Below are positions 39,830 through 46,742 of a stretch of DNA of 64,000 nucleotides, one piece after another. The position numbers and the translations under genes were made by a program. The number at the start of each line of letters is the position of its first letter. The stretch's first letter is position 1. The notes beneath the pieces were generated by a model that was given only the letters and a program-made list of their open reading frames with translations, was not told the origin of the DNA and made no database searches. Source of the DNA: an uncultured Bacilli bacterium (GTDB lineage: Bacteria; Bacillota_I; Bacilli_A; RF39; UBA660); assembly GCA_910576795.1 (NCBI GenBank), contig CAJTIX010000005.1, positions 6,804 to 70,803 on the forward strand, read 5' to 3'.

Positions 39830-40852
39830 ATGAATGATTTAAAAGAACAAAATGATCTATTAATTTATAAAAATAAAGATGGAGATATAGTAGTTGATGC
39901 AATATATAAAGATGATACTTTGTGGTTAACACAAAAGGCTATGTCAAAAGTTTTTGATTGTAGTGTTGATAATATTTCCTTACATTTAAAAAATATTTTT
40001 AAAGATAAAGAATTAGATGAAATCTCAGTTGCCGAGGAATCCTCGATAACTGCTTCTGATGGAAAAAAATATAGAACTAAGATGTATAATTTAGATGCTA
40101 TTATTGCAGTTGGTTATAGAATTAATTCAAAAAAAGCAACAGAGTTTAGAATATGGGCAACAAAGATACTAAAAGATTATATAACTAAGGGGTTTGCTTT
40201 AAATGATGAAAGATTTATCAAAGGCAATAAATATGATATGAAATATTTCGATGAATTACTTGAAAGAATAAAAACTATTCGAGTAAGTGAAAGAATGGCC
40301 TATCAAAAAATAACAGATTTATTTATTGCAACATCAACAGATTATAATCCATATGCAGAGGAAGCCTATACTTTTTTCAAAATTGTGCAAAACAAACTTC
40401 ATTATGCCATTTCTGGACATACAGCAGCGGAACTTATATATAGTCGAGCTGACTCTAATAAAGAACACATGGGACTTACAAATTGGAAAAATTCACCTGA
40501 TGGACTAATATATAAATATGATGTATCAATCGCTAAAAATTATTTAAATGAAGAAGAATTAAATAAGTTAAATGATTTAACGAATATGTTTTTAGTTTTT
40601 GCAGAAGATGAAGCAAAGGAAAAACATATTATGACAATGCAAGATTGGATTAATGCTACTGATGATTTATTAAAATTTAGAAGAAAAAATATTTTGAAAA
40701 GTTCTGGAAATATTTCCCATAAACAAGCAGTGGAAAAAGCAGAATGTGAATATGAAAAGTACAGAATAATTCAAGATCAAAAATATATTTCTTCTATGGA
40801 TGAATTCTATAATAAATATTTAGAAGAAAGTAAGAAGATTAACAATGGATAA
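39830..40852 (+). CDS. rhuM: RhuM family protein (paralog 1)
   Basis: LWLTQKAMSKVF, YNLDAIIAVGYRINSKKATEFRIWATKILKDYITKGFALNDERF and HTAAELIYSRAD. Confidence 0.85.
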   Translation: MNDLKEQNDLLIYKNKDGDIVVDAIYKDDTLWLTQKAMSKVFDCSVDNISLHLKNIFKDKELDEISVAEESSITASDGKKYRTKMYNLDAIIAVGYRINSKKATEFRIWATKILKDYITKGFALNDERFIKGNKYDMKYFDELLERIKTIRVSERMAYQKITDLFIATSTDYNPYAEEAYTFFKIVQNKLHYAISGHTAAELIYSRADSNKEHMGLTNWKNSPDGLIYKYDVSIAKNYLNEEELNKLNDLTNMFLVFAEDEAKEKHIMTMQDWINATDDLLKFRRKNILKSSGNISHKQAVEKAECEYEKYRIIQDQKYISSMDEFYNKYLEESKKINNG

Positions 40853-40892
40853 GTATAATGTTGAAGAAATCAAAGAAAAATTAGAAAGGTGA
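40845..40892 (+). pseudogene. 15-codon remnant of a gene homologous to 41784-42071
   Basis: MDKYNVEEIKEKLER* versus MMTNSKYNIEEIKEKLDRC.., about 80 percent nucleotide identity over 39 nt. Confidence 0.6.
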
Positions 40893-40899
40893 TTACGAC

Positions 40900-40923
40900 A
40901 TTGAAACCCCTACAATAAAATAA
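40900..40923 (+). repeat. junction motif, copy ii (core only)
   Basis: TTGAAACCCCTACAATAAAATAA resembles CGAAAACCCCTATAAAATAAG at 42921. Confidence 0.5.
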
Positions 40924-40951
40924 TTTTAAAATATAGAAAAGAGGCGAATAT

Positions 40952-41797
40952 ATGGCAAATAAAATGATTGAAGTTCAAACTATTAAAGTTAATATTTCAA
41001 GTATAAATGAAGATGATTATATATGTATTTCAGATATAGCAAAGGCTAAAAGTGATAAATCTCGTGCTGCTGATGTTATTAGAAACTGGTTAAGAAACAG
41101 AAGTACTTTGGATTTTTTAACTGCTTGGGAACAGATTTATAATCCAAATTTTAAAGTGTTCGAATCTGAACACTTTAGAAAACAAGTTGGCTTATTAACA
41201 TTTACTCCTAGTGTTAGTGAATGGTGTGAGAGGACAAGTGCTATTGGCATATATTCAAAATCTGGTAAATATGGCGGTACATATGCACATAAAGATATAG
41301 CATTTGAATTCGCTGCTCAAATTAGTCCTATTTTTAAATTATATTTAATAAAGGAATTTGAAAGATTAAAACAGTTAGAAAATCAAAATAGAGAATGGGA
41401 TGTAAAAAGAATATTAACAAAGAATAATTATTTAATTCATACTGACGCTATTAAAAATTATATATTACCAGATAATAATTATTTCAAAGATAGAGAGTGG
41501 CTTAAATATGCAGAAGAAGCAGATATTTTAAATGTAGCATTATTTCATACGACTGCTAAGAAATGGAGAGAACTAAATCCTGATTTAGCAAAAAATTCTA
41601 ATATTAGAGATTATGCTTCGATAAATGAATTGACTGTTTTATCTAATTTAGAATCACATAATGCAGAGTTAATTAAAGAAGGAAAAGAAAAAACAGAAAG
41701 ATTTGAAATATTAAGCGAAATTGCTAAGTATCAATTAGATATACTTAATAATGCAGAAAAGATAAAATTATTAGGAGATAAAAATGATGACGAATAG
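40952..41797 (+). CDS. KilA-N domain-containing protein
   Basis: ISDIAKAK...NWLRNRSTLDFLTAWEQIYNPNFK, GKYGGTYAHKDIAFEFA, IHTDAIKNYILP and ALFHTTAKKWRELNP. Confidence 0.8.
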   Translation: MANKMIEVQTIKVNISSINEDDYICISDIAKAKSDKSRAADVIRNWLRNRSTLDFLTAWEQIYNPNFKVFESEHFRKQVGLLTFTPSVSEWCERTSAIGIYSKSGKYGGTYAHKDIAFEFAAQISPIFKLYLIKEFERLKQLENQNREWDVKRILTKNNYLIHTDAIKNYILPDNNYFKDREWLKYAEEADILNVALFHTTAKKWRELNPDLAKNSNIRDYASINELTVLSNLESHNAELIKEGKEKTERFEILSEIAKYQLDILNNAEKIKLLGDKNDDE

Positions 41798-42071
41798 TAA
41801 ATATAATATTGAAGAAATAAAAGAAAAGCTGGATAGGTGCAAAAATATGAAACTTGAAGATGTTACTTTAGATGATGTAGATGAAATAAGTTCTATAAAA
41901 AGTGATAGGAGGAAATCAAGTGAAGAAAGAATATTAGATTTTTTAACAAAAGTTAAAAATCCATATATATTTAAAGTAAATGGAAAGTTAGTAAGAATGA
42001 GGTTTTCGGAAAATCCTGATTTAACAGCAGAAGATTGCTTAACAAGGGTATTAGAAAATTTATATAGATAG
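41784..42071 (+). CDS. small conserved mobile-element-associated protein (DUF6870-like, tentative)
   Basis: 95 aa, overlaps the kilA-N stop. The KNPYIFKVNGKLVRMRF pattern was recalled from clostridial MGE proteins. Confidence 0.45.
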   Translation: MMTNSKYNIEEIKEKLDRCKNMKLEDVTLDDVDEISSIKSDRRKSSEERILDFLTKVKNPYIFKVNGKLVRMRFSENPDLTAEDCLTRVLENLYR

Positions 42072-42083
42072 TGAGGAATTTAT

Positions 42084-42858
42084 ATGATTAATATAAGAGC
42101 GATAATTTTAGATGTTGATGGAACACTATTAAATGATAATAAAAAAATAGGTGAAAAAACTATTAGTATTTTAAAGCAAGTCAAAAATGATATTAAAATA
42201 ATCCTCGCAAGTGCTAGACAATTTTATACTATAAAACCATATTTAGAAGAATTGGATTTGCTAGATAATGATAATTATACTATTAGTTTTAATGGAGCAC
42301 TGATAGTTGATAACAAAGAAAATCAATTATTTTCCTCCCGTATTAGTCCAAAAGTATTGATTGAAATAGATTTTTATTTTAAATAATAGTATTAATTGGA
42401 CTTATTATTTATATGATAGTAGACTATTAAGAAATGAAATTAATAATATTAAAGAATTTGTGTGTAAAAATACGATATATAAAATAGTTGGTATAGCAAC
42501 TCCTAATGAAATAGAACAAATTAGAAAAAATCTACCTAAATGTATATTAGATAATTTAGAAATAACAAGCAGTGAATTAAATAGAATAGAATTTGTTAAT
42601 AAAGGTATGACTAAACTTAAGGCAATAGATTTATTATTAAATAGATTAAATATTGATAAAGATAATACTGTAGCAATTGGTGACGGGGAAAATGATATAG
42701 ATATGATAAAATATGTTGGATGTGGAATTGCCATGTTAAATTCACCTCAAATAGTGAAAGAAAATGCTGATATTGTCACCAAGTTCTCTAATAATGAAGA
42801 TGGGATTTATTATGTAATTAATGACTTATTGAATAAAGAGGGTGCAGAAAATGAATAA
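42084..42858 (+). pseudogene. Cof-type HAD-IIB hydrolase, frameshifted
   Basis: N-terminal half ILDVDGTLLN (42084-42386) and C-terminal half GDGENDIDM (42460-42858) lie in different frames. The second frame is open from 42370, so the shift falls in a T-run near 42371-42384. Confidence 0.75.
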
Positions 42859-42958
42859 TGACAATCGACAAAATTCGACAAATAATATAAATTGGGATAT
42901 CCAGATTTATGGAAACACTTCCGAAAACCCCTATAAAATAAGAAAAATTAATATGTAA
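42851..42958 (+). CDS. 35-codon small ORF A (speculative)
   Basis: MNNDNRQNSTNNINWDIQIYGNTSENPYKIRKINM. Overlaps the HAD stop and is paralogous to ORF B at 44470. Confidence 0.25.
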   Translation: MNNDNRQNSTNNINWDIQIYGNTSENPYKIRKINM

Positions 42959-43000
42959 TATAATACATATTTTGATAAAATTAAGAAAGAAGGTGTAATT

Positions 43001-44005
43001 TTGGAAAATAAAAACGAAATAATGATTTATGAAGATAAAGATGGAATTACTAAAGTTAATGTAAAGTTCAATGATGAAGATATTTGGGTATCTAAATATC
43101 AAATTGCTGATTTGTATAACACAACTAGGCAAAATATAGAACAGCATATTAAGAATATTTATAATGATAAAGAATTAGAAGAAAATTCAACTTGCAAGAA
43201 TTTCTTGCAAGTTCAAAAAGAAGGTAATCGAGAAGTTAAAAGAAATATTGATCATTATAATTTAGATATGATAATTGCTTTAGGATATCGAGTTCAATCA
43301 GATGTTGCGGTAAGATTTAGAATATGGGCAACAAAAAGATTACACGAATACATCCAGAAGGGCTTTGCTTTAGATGATGAAAGACTAAAGCAAGGGGGCA
43401 ATAGATACTTTAAAGAATTACTACAAAGAATTAGAGATATTCGTTCTAGTGAAAGAAATTTTTATCAACAAGTAACGGATATATATGCAACAAGCATTGA
43501 CTATAATCCAAGAAGTGATATCACAAAAAAGTTTTTTGCTACAGTACAAAATAAATTACACTTTGCAGTTCATGAACATACAGCAGCAGAACTTATTTAT
43601 GAAAGAGTTGATAATAAAAAGCCTTATGTTGGAATGACTAATTTTAAAGGAGATTATGTTACAATAGATGATGTAAAAATTGCTAAAAATTATTTATCTG
43701 AAATTGAACTTCAAAGATTAAATCTATTAGTATCACAATTTTTAGATTTTGCTGAGTTACAAGCATTAGAACAAAGAACAATGAGAATGCAAGATTGGGT
43801 AGAAGAATTAGATAATCAAATACTTCTAAATAGAAGAAAAATACTAGAAGGTAATGGTAAAATTTCACATGATGAAGCAATAGAAAAGGCTGAAAAAGAA
43901 TTTAATATATATCGTGAAAGAGAAATGAAAGAATTACAAAGTGATTTTGATTTATTAATGAAATCACTACCAAGCCATAATAAAAAAGGTGATGAAAATG
44001 AATAA
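43001..44005 (+). CDS. rhuM: RhuM family protein (paralog 2)
   Basis: YNLDMIIALGYRVQSDVAVRFRIWATKRLHEYIQKGFALDDERL and HTAAELIYERVD. TTG start after a GAAGGTG RBS. Confidence 0.85.
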   Translation: MENKNEIMIYEDKDGITKVNVKFNDEDIWVSKYQIADLYNTTRQNIEQHIKNIYNDKELEENSTCKNFLQVQKEGNREVKRNIDHYNLDMIIALGYRVQSDVAVRFRIWATKRLHEYIQKGFALDDERLKQGGNRYFKELLQRIRDIRSSERNFYQQVTDIYATSIDYNPRSDITKKFFATVQNKLHFAVHEHTAAELIYERVDNKKPYVGMTNFKGDYVTIDDVKIAKNYLSEIELQRLNLLVSQFLDFAELQALEQRTMRMQDWVEELDNQILLNRRKILEGNGKISHDEAIEKAEKEFNIYREREMKELQSDFDLLMKSLPSHNKKGDENE

Positions 44006-44480
44006 GTTATTATTTACTGCCTTTAATGGAAAAAGAAATTCCTCAAAAATATTGTTAGATAATATTATTACAGAAAATAAGTTATATTTAAAAAATAGTT
44101 TTGAAACATCTGTAAAACAATTTATAAAGGAAATTACCAATATAGACTACGATTTTATTATTTCTTTCGGACAAGCGCCTCTTGAAAAAGATAATTTAAA
44201 AATAGAAATTATGGCTAGTGGGGAGGATATTTATAAAACTGAATTTGATTATCTTGGATTGCAAAAAATATTCGAAAAAAGTAAATTCAAAGTATTAATC
44301 TCTAACAATGCAGGTAATTATTTATGTAACAATATATATTATGAAGGTCTCAAATATATAAATAAAAATAGATTAAAAGCCAAAATGATATTTATACATA
44401 TACCAAATATAGAAAATATAAGTGATATTAATGAACTTACTATGTTATTAAATGAAGGAAGTGATATTTGTGTCAAATGA
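43989..44480 (+). CDS. peptidase C15 (pyroglutamyl-peptidase I)-like protein
   Basis: Alignable by eye to Pcp: LLFTAFNG..NSS, FGQA...EIMA (Glu), NNAGNYLCNNIYY (Cys) and IFIHIP (His). Overlaps the rhuM2 stop. Confidence 0.55.
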   Translation: MMKMNKLLFTAFNGKRNSSKILLDNIITENKLYLKNSFETSVKQFIKEITNIDYDFIISFGQAPLEKDNLKIEIMASGEDIYKTEFDYLGLQKIFEKSKFKVLISNNAGNYLCNNIYYEGLKYINKNRLKAKMIFIHIPNIENISDINELTMLLNEGSDICVK

Positions 44481-44577
44481 TGATAAAAAAGTGTTTCCAT
44501 CTGCCCAGATAAACTGGGATAACCCAACAAAAGGACAACTCACTTCAAACCTTTATAATAAAGAGCTTTTTTCTTAA
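44470..44577 (+). CDS. 35-codon small ORF B (speculative)
   Basis: GTG start. MSNDDKKVFPSAQINWDNPTKGQLTSNLYNKELFS. Overlaps the stop of the C15-like gene. Confidence 0.25.
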   Translation: MSNDDKKVFPSAQINWDNPTKGQLTSNLYNKELFS

Positions 44578-44604
44578 AAAGATATTACACTAATTGTAAA
44601 AAGG
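44532..44604 (+). repeat. junction motif, copy iv
   Basis: AGGACAACTCACTTCAAACCTTTATAATAAA..GATATTACAC. Confidence 0.7.
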
Positions 44605-44615
44605 AGACAAAAGTT

Positions 44616-45323
44616 ATGAAAGAATGTTTGATATTATTTTCTGGGGGAAAGGATTCATTACTGAGTGCTATATTATTGATAGAACAAGGCTATAAAATTA
44701 AATTGGTACACTATGATAATATGTGTACAGTAGGTTGTAGCAATATTAAAAATGGTTATAAAAGATTAGTAAAGAAATACGGCTCTGATAAGGTTGAATA
44801 TTTAGGAGTTAAAAATATTAGTTGTTTTTTTAGAAAATTTATTTGTGTAATGTATAACATGCAAATTGATGAAATTAAAGAAAAGTATGGAAATATATCT
44901 ATATCACAATTAAATTGCTTATCTTGTAGATTGTCTATGTATATTGCATCAATATTAATTTGTAAAAAATATAATATAAAATATGTTGCAGATGGAGCAA
45001 GAAATAGCCAATTATTTGCAATAGAACAAGACAAAATGTTAGACTTATTTAAAGATTTATTTAATCAATATAATATAGACTTATTATTACCTGTTAAAAA
45101 TATTACAGATGATTTTGATGAGAAAAATCAACTTCTCTTAAGAGGTATTATTCCAAAGGTAAAAGAATCACAATGTTTATTAGGAATGCCTCTTTTAAAT
45201 AATAAAGTAGATGAAGAATCGCTTGAAACTTGTACTAAAATTTACAAAAAATTATTTGAACATATGGCTCAAGATATGATTGAACAATTTTATAATATTG
45301 AAATAGGTGAGGTATTTATTTGA
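44616..45323 (+). CDS. PP-loop ATP pyrophosphatase, TtcA/TtuA/LarE-like
   Basis: ILFSGGKDSLLSA PP-loop. NCLSCRLSMYIASILICKKYNIKYVADGARN resembles the CxxC..R...L....G segment of Fe-S dependent thiolases. A further Cys lies in ESQCLLG. Confidence 0.65.
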   Translation: MKECLILFSGGKDSLLSAILLIEQGYKIKLVHYDNMCTVGCSNIKNGYKRLVKKYGSDKVEYLGVKNISCFFRKFICVMYNMQIDEIKEKYGNISISQLNCLSCRLSMYIASILICKKYNIKYVADGARNSQLFAIEQDKMLDLFKDLFNQYNIDLLLPVKNITDDFDEKNQLLLRGIIPKVKESQCLLGMPLLNNKVDEESLETCTKIYKKLFEHMAQDMIEQFYNIEIGEVFI

Positions 45324-45871
45324 TGTGTGATAATAGAAGTAAAAAATTTATTTTTGTTCCTTTTTGTTTGATGGCTCAAGCATATCAAGCTCAAGGAATA
45401 GTTAAATATGATTGGAAAGGAACAATAAAACCTATTATGCAATTACTAATAGATAATGAAATAAATATTATTCAAATGCCATGTGCAGAAAGTTTATATA
45501 AAAATAGTTTAATTAGAGAACCAAAAGGATTATCAAAATATAATACTATAGAATTTAATGAACATTGTAATGAGTTGGCAGAAAAAGTTTTTAAAGAAAT
45601 AAAAAATATAATTAATTCGGGTTATGAAGTACTTGCAATACTAGGTATTGAGCATTCTCCGTCTTGTTGTGTAAATTATATATATACTAATAAGGGAATG
45701 GAAAAGAGAAAAGGATTGTTTATAGAAAAAATATATGATAAATTACAAAAGGAAAATATAAATATTCCTATTATTGGTATTAATAGAAAATATATAAATA
45801 AAACAATAAAAGAGTTAAAAACATTTATAGAAAATGGAAGTGGTTTTAATGAGAAAAAAAGAAGAAAATAA
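45323..45871 (+). CDS. DUF523/TudS-related putative [4Fe-4S] desulfidase-like protein
   Basis: Three Cys in TudS-like contexts: FVPFCLM, QMPCAES and EHSPSCC. TGATG overlap with the PP-loop gene. Confidence 0.5.
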   Translation: MCDNRSKKFIFVPFCLMAQAYQAQGIVKYDWKGTIKPIMQLLIDNEINIIQMPCAESLYKNSLIREPKGLSKYNTIEFNEHCNELAEKVFKEIKNIINSGYEVLAILGIEHSPSCCVNYIYTNKGMEKRKGLFIEKIYDKLQKENINIPIIGINRKYINKTIKELKTFIENGSGFNEKKRRK

Positions 45872-46742
45872 AAGTTGTCCATTTGTAGGGATAAACTGGT
45901 ATCCCGGCCATATGGCCAAAACCAAAAGACTAATTTCAGAAAAAATAAATCAAATTGACATTGTATATGAAGTAATAGATGCTAGAATTCCGTATTCCTC
46001 AAAAATTACAGATATTGATCAATACATTAAAAATAAACCTAGTATTTTAATCTTTACGAAAATGGATTTATGTGATTTGAAAGAAACTAAAAAATGGATG
46101 GAATATTATGAAAAAAAGGGGTATACGGTTCTTGGCGTTGATTTAACAACAACCAATTGTACCAAGCAAATTATAGATATGACAATAAAAATTTTAGAGG
46201 GACAAGCTATCAAAAGAGAACAAAAAGGTCTACAAAAACGTAAAGCAAGAGTATTAGTTGTTGGAATTCCAAATGCAGGAAAATCGACTTTAATCAATCG
46301 ATTGGTTGGTAAAAAAGCAGTAGTGGTTGGTAATAAACCAGGTGTAACTAAAAATTTAGATTGGATACGAATTAATGAATCCATAGAATTACTTGATTCT
46401 CCAGGAATTCTGTGGCCTAAATTTGAATCAAATGAAGTTGCCTTCAATTTAGCGAGTCTTACTGCCATCAAAGAAGAGGTACTACCTTTAGATGAAGTAG
46501 TAATCTATATTTTAGAGACCTTAGAAACCTATTATCCAGAAATTCTAAAAGCACGTTATGGAATAGAAAAACTGAATGAGGATATTATAGAAACACTAGA
46601 ATTCATTGGGAAAAAAAGAGGATGTCTTATTCGTGGTGGCGAAATTGATTATGAAAAAGTATATACTGTTATTTTAAATGATATCAAAGATGGTAGTATC
46701 AAAGGTATTACCTTTGATCGGATGGACAATCATGGAAAATAA
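45849..46742 (+). CDS. rbgA: ribosome biogenesis GTPase A (YlqF/RbgA)
   Basis: INWYPGHMAKTKR, circularly permuted GTPase motifs (TKMDL, GIPNAGKST, DSPG). Confidence 0.9.
   Translation: MRKKEENKSCPFVGINWYPGHMAKTKRLISEKINQIDIVYEVIDARIPYSSKITDIDQYIKNKPSILIFTKMDLCDLKETKKWMEYYEKKGYTVLGVDLTTTNCTKQIIDMTIKILEGQAIKREQKGLQKRKARVLVVGIPNAGKSTLINRLVGKKAVVVGNKPGVTKNLDWIRINESIELLDSPGILWPKFESNEVAFNLASLTAIKEEVLPLDEVVIYILETLETYYPEILKARYGIEKLNEDIIETLEFIGKKRGCLIRGGEIDYEKVYTVILNDIKDGSIKGITFDRMDNHGK

Follow-up and report, generated by a model that had tools for sequence, protein, structure and literature searches.

A conserved gene pair encoding a YcfA-like PP-loop enzyme and a TudS-related protein is a candidate thio-nucleotide system in an uncultured Bacilli bacterium

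Do three neighbouring genes at the edge of an accessory islet in an uncultured Bacilli bacterium (RF39, UBA660) form one sulfur-handling module, and on what would such a module act? The genes lie on the plus strand of a 64,000-nucleotide (nt) stretch of contig CAJTIX010000005.1 (assembly GCA_910576795.1, positions 6,804 to 70,803), which was analysed as a whole and is called the window here. According to the open reading frame (ORF) listing, they encode a 163-amino-acid (aa) protein resembling C15-family pyroglutamyl peptidases (43989-44480), a 235-aa YcfA-like PP-loop ATP pyrophosphatase (44616-45323), and a TudS-related, CD3072-like protein with a putative [4Fe-4S] desulfidase fold (45320-45871), which is 183 aa long, or 182 aa if translation starts at the ATG at 45323. 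The original prediction, made from the sequence alone, joined all three in an uncharacterised sulfur-chemistry module. The ORF list and the sequence itself contain all three frames with their motifs, and the module claim stands for the PP-loop and TudS-like genes but falls for the C15-like gene. We find that the functional and conserved unit is two genes, not three, and that the two proteins probably carry out oxygen/sulfur exchange on free nucleotides.

We examined which genes belong together, both in the window and in related loci. In the window, the PP-loop and TudS-like genes meet in a TGATG stop/start overlap (45321-45325, plus strand), which had been noted before and is confirmed by the sequence; the TGA stop of the PP-loop gene and the ATG of the TudS-like gene have one base in common. 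The partial translational coupling proposed for the three genes is limited to these two, since the C15-like gene is set off by a 135-bp gap. TGATG-type overlaps between PP-loop and TudS-like genes recur in related loci. With the PP-loop protein as bait, 19 loci in species-representative genomes encode true relatives, and the TudS-like gene overlaps the PP-loop stop in all 12 loci at >=49% identity, including a truncated copy in L003, as well as in L044 (L and G numbers are our handles for loci and genomes). With the TudS-like protein as bait, metagenomes from gut and environmental samples yielded 80 loci, and in 59 of these the gene immediately upstream encodes a PP-loop protein. L096 (an ORF-calling artefact) and L091 (next to a second TudS-like copy) are in effect adjacent as well, and of the other loci ten offer less than 500 nt upstream. 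When the two sets are combined and de-duplicated, the TudS-like gene is immediately preceded by a PP-loop gene in 68 of 83 loci, or in 48 of 59 groups at 90% identity, and two of the 15 misses are artefacts (the truncated PP-loop copy in L003 and a PP-loop ORF filtered out in L096). This adjacency is far beyond chance. In L003, from a genome of the same genus (G001), all that is left of the PP-loop gene is a 55-aa remnant (1501-1668) whose matched frame contains two stop codons; beside it lie an intact TudS-like gene and, after that, a gene for an ADP-ribosylglycohydrolase.

A natural fusion also joins the two families. An exhaustive profile search returned 626 representative PP-loop clusters at E <= 0.001 among 1.84 billion. 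One representative, P0371 (411 aa), combines a PP-loop domain (residues 32-227) with a TudS-like domain (250-388, i-E 3.8e-11) that carries the motifs Cys, Cys-Pro-Glu and Ser-Pro-Thr-Cys, and three others (P0330, P0379 and P0380) are PP-loop-NUDIX fusions. A word-indexed search for longer or fused PP-loop forms had returned none, a blank that the exhaustive search identifies as a limit of sensitivity. Seven further relatives of 360-400 aa (P0297, P0305, P0310, P0321, P0325, P0327 and P0340) have N-terminal extensions of about 150-175 aa that lack a Pfam match and appear mutually related by eye; the Atlas has a 380-aa cluster, half of whose few labelled members are viral. Predicting a complex of the PP-loop and TudS-like proteins gave a score of 0.00 and a mark of 0.32, which counts for neither side.

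Not every PP-loop gene has the partner. Nine loci at 40-47% PP-loop identity have no adjacent TudS-like gene; a TudS-like gene is missing altogether from eight of these genomes, and the ninth carries one that is unlinked, next to an NT5C-like gene. In a maximum-likelihood tree, rooted at the midpoint only, eight of the nine solo forms make up one long-branched clade (support 100/97) nested among paired forms, which suggests loss of the partner. A TudS-like neighbour was also not found at the archaeal PP-loop loci L024-L035. The TudS-like subfamily itself is rare, with a strong match in 2 of 399 genomes sampled across the phylum, and the PP-loop gene is present in 4 of 41 related genomes.

The C15-like gene does not share this linkage. 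It stands beside the pair in 1 of 94 loci, the window itself, and in 0 of the 93 others, and it was found in 0 of 24 genomes of the same family, so that the trio of the original prediction does not hold as a unit. The notion that all three proteins work jointly, for example in peptide thioamidation, draws on three adjacent same-strand genes in the window; given this lack of co-occurrence, the 135-bp gap, and the Shine-Dalgarno sequence within it (AAGGAG, 44602-44607, plus strand, 8 nt before the PP-loop ATG), we regard it as hardly credible. Neither a precursor peptide nor a YcaO-type gene was found, which also tells against the peptide thioamidation suggested before. The C15-like protein belongs to a large independent family of its own, which comprises 355 clusters of short homologues (about 150-160 aa). 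It scores 39.4 bits against Pfam Peptidase_C15, over profile positions 124-172 of 204 only, and 48.9 bits against an NCBIfam cut-off of 199. The Glu/Cys/His triad pattern noted for it before fares unevenly: Cys113 and His137 align with the catalytic regions of solved pyroglutamyl peptidases (6ltq, E 3.1e-7), whereas Glu73, present at the expected place, aligns only within a non-significant stretch. Unlike pyroglutamyl peptidase I, at about 210 aa, the protein has 163 aa and lacks, by eye, some 20 residues after the Glu. In L037 (463-1992, G025), a 509-aa protein has DUF5677 at its N-terminus and the short C15-like domain at its C-terminus, and in L039 (1504-1920, G033) a C15-like gene stands directly after an AbiEii toxin gene and ahead of a Schlafen/AlbA_2 gene. 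These contexts suggest a defence-related role for this mini-peptidase family, and we judge the window copy to be an unrelated islet neighbour outside the module.

We next consider the PP-loop protein, which carries the motifs SGGKDS (residues 9-14), NCLSCR (100-105) and DGARN (126-130). Pfam gives weak family matches (ThiI at 28.7 bits, DUF7411 below its cut-off). When a profile of 20 homologues (A1) was searched against the PDB, the best match was YcfA of Erwinia amylovora (9kq6, E 7.2e-14, residues 4-184), followed by MJ0690 at E 1.1e-3. The AlphaFold2 model is a single 235-aa domain with a predicted local distance difference test (pLDDT) score of 88.4, and the best-ranked Foldseek rows are all YcfA chains, at E about 1e-12, template modelling (TM) scores of 0.73-0.81 and 20-21% identity; TM scores to other PP-loop enzymes are 0.54 for QueC, 0.51-0.59 for ThiI, 0.46 for LarE and 0.43 for TtuA. 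By profile and model comparison, YcfA is the closest characterised and solved relative of the protein, nearer than TtcA/TtuA, LarE or CtaC, to whose motif arrangement it had been likened before. YcfA (PDB 9KQ6, 9KQ7, 9KQ9, 9KQD), of the YcfA-YcfC 6-thioguanine system, is likewise a single-domain PP-loop protein of about 235 aa. YcfA activates guanine nucleotides by adenylation at the C6 carbonyl and attaches L-cysteine, and the pyridoxal phosphate (PLP) lyase YcfC cleaves the cysteine adduct, leaving the thioamide, as described in the available sections of PMC12494993.

Seven ATP-, Mg- and nucleotide-binding residues of YcfA have conserved counterparts in the window protein. The mutagenesis reported in the same sections of PMC12494993 assigns ATP or GTP binding to YcfA Asp19, Gln129, Glu134, Gln135, Lys169, Lys180 and Glu183, with Lys169 and Lys180 holding the GTP triphosphate. 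We mapped these residues through the A1/YcfA alignment and counted conservation in 51 unique relatives. Asp19, the PP-loop aspartate essential for adenylation, corresponds to Asp13 (kept in 48/51), Gln129 to Gln132 (49/51), Glu134 to Glu137 (47/51) and Gln135 to Gln138 (32/51), and Lys169, Lys180 and Glu183 correspond to Lys170, Lys181 and Glu184, each kept in 51/51. Because the counterparts of the triphosphate-holding lysines are invariant, a free nucleotide rather than RNA is favoured as the substrate. YcfA Tyr128, which positions L-cysteine, is Ser131 in the window protein, and the five commonest residues tallied at this position in the 51 relatives are Ser (32), Asp (9), Asn (4), Ile (3) and Cys (1), none of them aromatic. 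PP-loop Cys116, which corresponds to YcfA Cys113, is variable (31/51).

A second difference from YcfA is an invariant CXXC+C set. In the 51 relatives, Cys101 is kept in 51, Cys104 in 50 and Cys187 in 51, and among 131 full-length representatives of the wider family the three Cys are kept in 128, 128 and 123; in YcfA, Leu and Gly occupy the first two of these positions. The third Cys lies in a flexible loop next to the Mg-binding Glu (pLDDT below 50 at residues 184-188). The available sections of PMC9825150 report that Methanococcus maripaludis TtuI has Cys265, Cys268 and Cys348 and needs its [4Fe-4S] cluster for tRNA sulfuration. The spacing from CXXC to the third Cys is 83 residues in the window protein and 80 in TtuI, with the third Cys in a flexible loop in both, and archaeal TtuI/ThiI, TtuA, NcsA and TtcA all share a PP-loop domain with CXXC+C in the catalytic domain. 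From this motif likeness we infer that the window protein may hold a [4Fe-4S] cluster, and the proposed chemistry would resemble that of these sulfurtransferases, with adenylation of a carbonyl followed by attack of cluster-bound sulfide. The protein differs from them in having no THUMP, zinc-finger or other RNA-binding domain and in a fold likeness to TtuA and ThiI far below that to YcfA (TM 0.43 and 0.51-0.59); its substrate, unlike that of the tRNA sulfurtransferases, is likely a free nucleotide.

These comparisons bear on whether the pair might act on RNA, with the PP-loop protein as a minimal ThiI-like synthase of 4-thiouridine or 2-thiouridine and its partner as a RudS/TudS-like de-modifier of tRNA. 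The Pfam ThiI match (28.7 bits), the CXXC+C set shared with the tRNA sulfurase TtuI, and tRNA/rRNA enzyme genes near some pairs (MnmA in L012, RumA-like in L063 and L082, TrmD in L132) would fit such a writer/eraser, and RudS, in the available sections of PMC11417400, shows that TudS domains can act on tRNA. However, Pfam and NCBIfam scans of both proteins revealed no THUMP, zinc-finger, DUF1722 or other RNA-binding domain, the fold is YcfA-like with invariant triphosphate-binding lysines, the NUDIX fusions point to free nucleotides, and the window genome (G000) already encodes a separate full ThiI (223.8 bits) and MnmA, along with IscS and IscU. We consider action on RNA decidedly improbable.

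Several other identities were tried for the PP-loop protein and set aside. A housekeeping ThiI, QueC or TilS is rejected with the separate ThiI in the genome and QueC-family scores below cut-offs. LarE or CtaC was dropped at a TM score to LarE of only 0.46. A DndC/SspD-type role in DNA modification, also raised by the original prediction, did not survive, since Dnd/Ssp partners are absent from all neighbourhoods scanned.

The partner gene encodes a divergent relative of the desulfidase TudS. Its best curated match is NCBIfam NF045597 (CD3072 family TudS-related putative desulfidase; E 3.4e-30, 104.7 bits, profile positions 1-146 of 148). Three motifs stand out: Cys16 in PFCLM, Cys55-x-Glu57 in MPCAE, and Ser113-Pro-Ser115-Cys116-Cys117 in SPSCC. 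In TudS (PDB 6Z92-6Z96), the available sections of PMC10611767 give Cys10, Cys43 and Cys104 as the cluster ligands and Glu45, Ser101 and Ser103 as catalytic residues. Cys16, Cys55/Glu57 and Ser113/Ser115/Cys116 of the window protein correspond to TudS Cys10, Cys43/Glu45 and Ser101/Ser103/Cys104, in the same Cys-x-Glu and Ser-Pro-Ser-Cys contexts and with the same 61-residue spacing from the second to the third Cys. Cys16, Cys55, Glu57, Arg66, Ser113 and Cys116 are invariant in 80 of 80 unique relatives, Ser115 is kept in 79/80 and Cys83 in 78/80. Thus, both the CxxC and the TudS-type Cys assignments of the original prediction hold, with the residues effectively invariant across relatives. PDB searches with the TudS-like sequence or with a profile of 12 orthologues at 64-85% identity to the window protein (A2) gave no meaningful match. 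The model has a pLDDT of 77.8, and in a second look with VIA-align the top four chains are TudS (Z 8.5-9.0, root-mean-square deviation 3.1-4.4, 128-136 residues aligned), and the row below them has Z 7.5. The protein differs from TudS in its identity of about 15%, an extra near-invariant Cys83 and a length greater by about 30 residues, and it falls below both curated cut-offs. In some loci the TudS-like gene stands beside a canonical TudS gene, so the two proteins are not redundant. We regard the TudS-like protein as a diverged sister group that lies outside both TudS itself and NF045597. Its linkage to a PP-loop enzyme, once by fusion, sets it further apart from TudS and RudS, for which no such partner was found described; the available sections of PMC10611767 and PMC11417400 mention no PP-loop partner.

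What would these two proteins do together? Among the roles listed before, the evidence favours nucleobase or nucleotide thiolation and salvage. Our best explanation, to which we give a probability of roughly 0.45, is that the pair is an ATP-dependent, iron-sulfur (Fe-S)-mediated thio-nucleotide synthase whose TudS-like partner supplies or handles sulfur. This explanation is based on YcfA homology, residue conservation, gene linkage and natural fusions, and from these we infer that the proteins carry Fe-S clusters, which way the reaction runs, which nucleotide is used and how the two proteins share the work. Besides ATP, the PP-loop enzyme would bind a free nucleotide, for which a nucleoside triphosphate is the likeliest candidate and a purine bearing a C6 carbonyl, such as GTP, the leading guess. 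It would adenylate the base carbonyl and swap the oxygen for sulfur, with the incoming sulfide bound to the free iron of a [4Fe-4S] cluster on CXXC+C in the manner of archaeal ThiI/TtuI and TtuA. The TudS-like protein would be the sulfur-handling partner that takes sulfur, from a thio-compound or sulfide, as [4Fe-5S] and passes it on; alternatively, it may act on the adenylated intermediate. In either case it would take the place that YcfC and TgsA, both PLP enzymes, have in the known thioguanine systems. A thio-nucleotide would result, and pyrophosphatases or nucleotidases encoded nearby could then trim it.

A more specific form of the synthase is an Fe-S relay that depends on neither cysteine nor PLP, in which the TudS-like protein uses its desulfidase chemistry to load sulfur, possibly by stripping it from one thio-nucleotide such as tRNA-derived 4-thio-UMP, and the YcfA-like enzyme installs it on a second, ATP-activated nucleotide. 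We hold this version to be unlikely. If it were true, a 6-thioguanine-type antimetabolite or an anti-phage nucleotide would be expected in gut and sediment anaerobes.

The neighbours of the pair are often nucleotide house-cleaning enzymes, and no third gene is universal beside it in the loci scanned. Ham1 occurs in L006, L064 and L085, a YjjX-type NTPase gene overlapping the pair in L135, and a guanylate-kinase-like gene overlapping the PP-loop gene in L087. Other loci contain a dCTP-deaminase-like gene (L123), NT5C (L012), HAD (L077) or HD (L022 and L084) genes, a PNP/UDP phosphorylase (L085), or, behind a PP-loop gene of the solo form, NUDIX and queuosine-salvage-type genes (L013). Sulfur metabolism also appears. 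In L012 (4123-8379), the pair lies between IscS-IscU and MnmA, with IscS two genes upstream and an S-adenosylmethionine (SAM) riboswitch and metK downstream. In L017 (4746-6699) and L021 (4730-6708), a solo PP-loop gene follows a PLP gene of PF06838 (Met_gamma_lyase family), overlapping it in L017; in this derived subclade, PF06838 is consistent with a sulfur-donor slot and echoes YcfA-YcfC. No PLP-dependent C-S lyase or desulfurase was found beside the pair in the window, by ORF list and Pfam. A fusion of QueH (epoxyqueuosine reductase) with a GNAT acetyltransferase lies directly upstream of the pair in L010 (4850-5884), and GNAT genes also flank the pair in L005, L007, L018, L082 and L085.

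The same neighbourhoods can be read in the opposite direction, as salvage or detoxification of thio-nucleotides. The TudS-like protein would strip sulfur from thio-nucleotides released by tRNA turnover, or from imported thiouracil- or thiopurine-type antimetabolites, and the PP-loop enzyme would re-use the cluster sulfide or process the oxo product, with house-cleaning and sulfur recycling as the net effect. The complete TudS catalytic set is invariant, and stand-alone TudS recycles 4-thio-UMP according to the available sections of PMC10611767. Ham1, YjjX, NUDIX, NT5C and HD are classical house-cleaning enzymes. Canonical TudS (PF04463, 83-165 bits, scored in 10 of 62 neighbour proteins scanned) directly follows the pair in 12 non-redundant groups of one environmental clade, a set that looks more like a catabolic one. 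Solo TudS-like genes also stand in plain salvage contexts: directly after thymidylate synthase in L102 (4156-5567, overlapping) and L113 (3-1025), which hints at deoxy-uridine-type nucleotides as possible substrates of the family, and next to genes for Ham1 and PNP/UDP phosphorylase in L085. However, TudS desulfurates without ATP or a partner, so salvage leaves the adenylating enzyme, linked in 48 of 59 groups and fused in P0371, with no role; moreover, this enzyme keeps the machinery by which YcfA activates a carbonyl oxygen, which is the direction of thiolation. We find salvage, though the strongest of the rival readings, doubtful as the function of the pair.

A third arrangement would make the PP-loop enzyme the producer of a toxic thio-nucleotide or thio-base and the TudS-like desulfidase the guard of the cell's own nucleotide pool. 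It would account for the homology to YcfA, as the ycf and tgs clusters make 6-thioguanine, and for linkage as tight as that typical of toxin-immunity pairs; the NUDIX fusions, like the pyrophosphatase or phosphatase genes nearby, agree with how 6-thioguanine clusters are laid out, and a major facilitator superfamily transporter lies near the pair in L077. Yet a conserved exporter was not found, and the solo PP-loop clade lacks the supposed protector. A maker and an eraser that are fused (P0371) or coupled 1:1 would run a futile, ATP-burning cycle, and hence we take the TudS-like protein to cooperate with the PP-loop enzyme rather than oppose it. We consider such self-protection quite unlikely.

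Mobile or defence-associated genes are frequent neighbours of the pair in gut lineages, which raises anti-phage defence as another reading: on infection the pair would alter the nucleotide pool, for example through a thio-NTP that poisons phage replication. RhuM occurs in the window and seven other loci, KilA-N in the window and L003, ToxN in L083, Bro-N in L064, Fic in L008, and an integrase and resolvase in L023; an IS200-type transposase-like ORF was recognised by eye in L044, and tRNA genes lie just upstream in L003, L008 and L044. Such variable islets speak for defence. The databases do not: PADLOC gave only a QatC match of 17.5 bits at the level of the PP-loop motif (residues 3-65), PDB QatC and Cap9 matched the A1 profile at E above 0.5, and PHROGs had zero matches for the C15-like, PP-loop and TudS-like proteins. 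Viral contigs hold no close relatives, with matches at the level of the PP-loop motif only (seven loci, the two longest covering query 5-107 at 30% identity). A conserved sensor or regulator gene was not found, and many loci, including environmental ones, have ordinary metabolic contexts (L012, L063, L093 and L132). We regard defence as improbable.

Several observations weigh against a thio-nucleotide synthase. The thiolation and desulfuration assignments of the two families come from comparison of sequences and models, and their Fe-S binding from motifs. Zinc is bound by a Cys set in QueC, and the three PP-loop Cys could hold zinc instead of a cluster. The tyrosine that positions L-cysteine in YcfA is replaced by Ser, Asp or Asn, and Phe132, which stacks on guanine in YcfA, is Ala or Val here. 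For the TudS-like protein, the NF045597 score of 104.7 is below the 130-bit cut-off, and Pfam PF04463 (2-thiour_desulf, DUF523) gives 20.3 bits against a gathering score of 34.7. By Foldseek alone, TudS ranks 42nd with E 0.039, although it has the highest TM in the list, and none of the rows reaches E <= 0.001; hhalign against nine canonical TudS proteins from related loci gives a probability of 1.7% and E 0.028, with the three motifs in register. Since every residue used by TudS for desulfuration is kept, the simplest activity of the protein is removal of sulfur, the reverse of the reaction proposed for the PP-loop enzyme. The existence of PP-loop proteins without a partner in a nested subclade means that the partner is not obligatory, and nine metagenome TudS-like loci have ample upstream room but no PP-loop gene. 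The canonical TudS genes that follow the pair and the solo TudS-like genes in salvage contexts count on the same side.

We also examined the surroundings of the pair in the window. The 37-46 kb region has 24-28% G+C, against about 30-33% for most other parts of the window, which fits an accessory islet; the C15-like, PP-loop and TudS-like genes close this low-G+C stretch, in keeping with the islet-edge position proposed for them earlier. Two RhuM-family genes (PADLOC candidate PDC-S05) lie in the islet (39830-44005), together with genes for KilA-N (PDC-S22) and DUF6870 proteins; a RhuM-DUF6870 arrangement is also upstream of the pair in L005. The start of the C15-like gene (43989) overlaps the end of the upstream RhuM gene (44005). 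A Cof-type HAD-IIB phosphatase is split into two ORFs, 42084-42386 and 42460-42858, with the N-terminal 100 aa matching profile positions 1-87 and the C-terminal 132 aa matching 140-255; it is probably a disrupted gene within the islet, and an intact relative lies upstream of the pair in L077. A promoter-like site in the 135-bp gap (AGGACA, 16 nt, TATAAT; 44532-44559, plus strand) is a weak consensus match and a candidate for the pair's own promoter; the promoter scan gave 31 sites versus 34 expected in shuffles, so it has no statistical weight.

Downstream, the start of ylqF, a ribosome biogenesis GTPase gene (45834-46742, plus strand; NCBIfam TIGR03596, 339.6 bits), overlaps the end of the TudS-like gene (45871), and L005 has the same junction. 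This housekeeping gene is outside the module and is probably co-transcribed with the pair; mini-RNase III, rlmB and a sigma factor are further housekeeping genes downstream of the islet. Cumulative GC skew peaks at about 49-50 kb, drops to about 59 kb and then rises, coinciding with a switch of coding strand. No riboswitch or leader was found upstream of the pair by Rfam, either in the window at E <= 1 or in 13 related loci at gathering thresholds; the Rfam matches in related loci are tRNA genes, the SAM riboswitch before metK (L012) and a match to the small RNA STnc490 (L044).

How does the pair compare with known systems? The sulfur-donor slot of the ycf and tgs systems is taken by a PLP enzyme (YcfC or TgsA), and YcfA and its staphylococcal counterpart TgsB work with NUDIX proteins (YcfA-YcfB and TgsB-TgsC/E), according to the available sections of PMC7994395. 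Fusion of PP-loop relatives of the window protein to NUDIX is a further likeness to YcfA/TgsB, a type also marked by 6-thioguanine nucleotides as product and by tetradecameric assembly. The differences are identity of 20-21%, the CXXC+C set and altered Cys-positioning residue, a partner predicted to be a TudS-like Fe-S-type protein instead of a PLP C-S lyase, and the lack of a conserved exporter beside the pair. We found no description of the PP-loop/TudS-like pairing, of DUF7411 or of the CD3072 family in the literature searched, which did not extend to subscription-only papers.

To our knowledge, the sole enzymatic sulfur insertion on a free nucleotide is that by YcfA/TgsB with a PLP enzyme, giving 6-thioguanine; we know of Fe-S-dependent thiolation on tRNA only, and of no Fe-S desulfidase for thio-nucleotides other than TudS. 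The module described here joins the scaffold of a free-nucleotide enzyme, the Fe-S motif of tRNA enzymes and a TudS relative, which is fused to the PP-loop enzyme once. The pair is probably a widely conserved, undescribed unit that combines nucleotide thioamidation with Fe-S-dependent sulfur transfer. If so, it would be a new enzyme system for making or exchanging thio-nucleotides and would assign a role to two families that are so far uncharacterised. Thioguanine, thiouracil and other thio-bases serve both as natural antimetabolites and as drugs, and in gut bacteria that carry the pair, the making or destroying of thio-bases could conceivably affect microbial competition and the fate of drugs.

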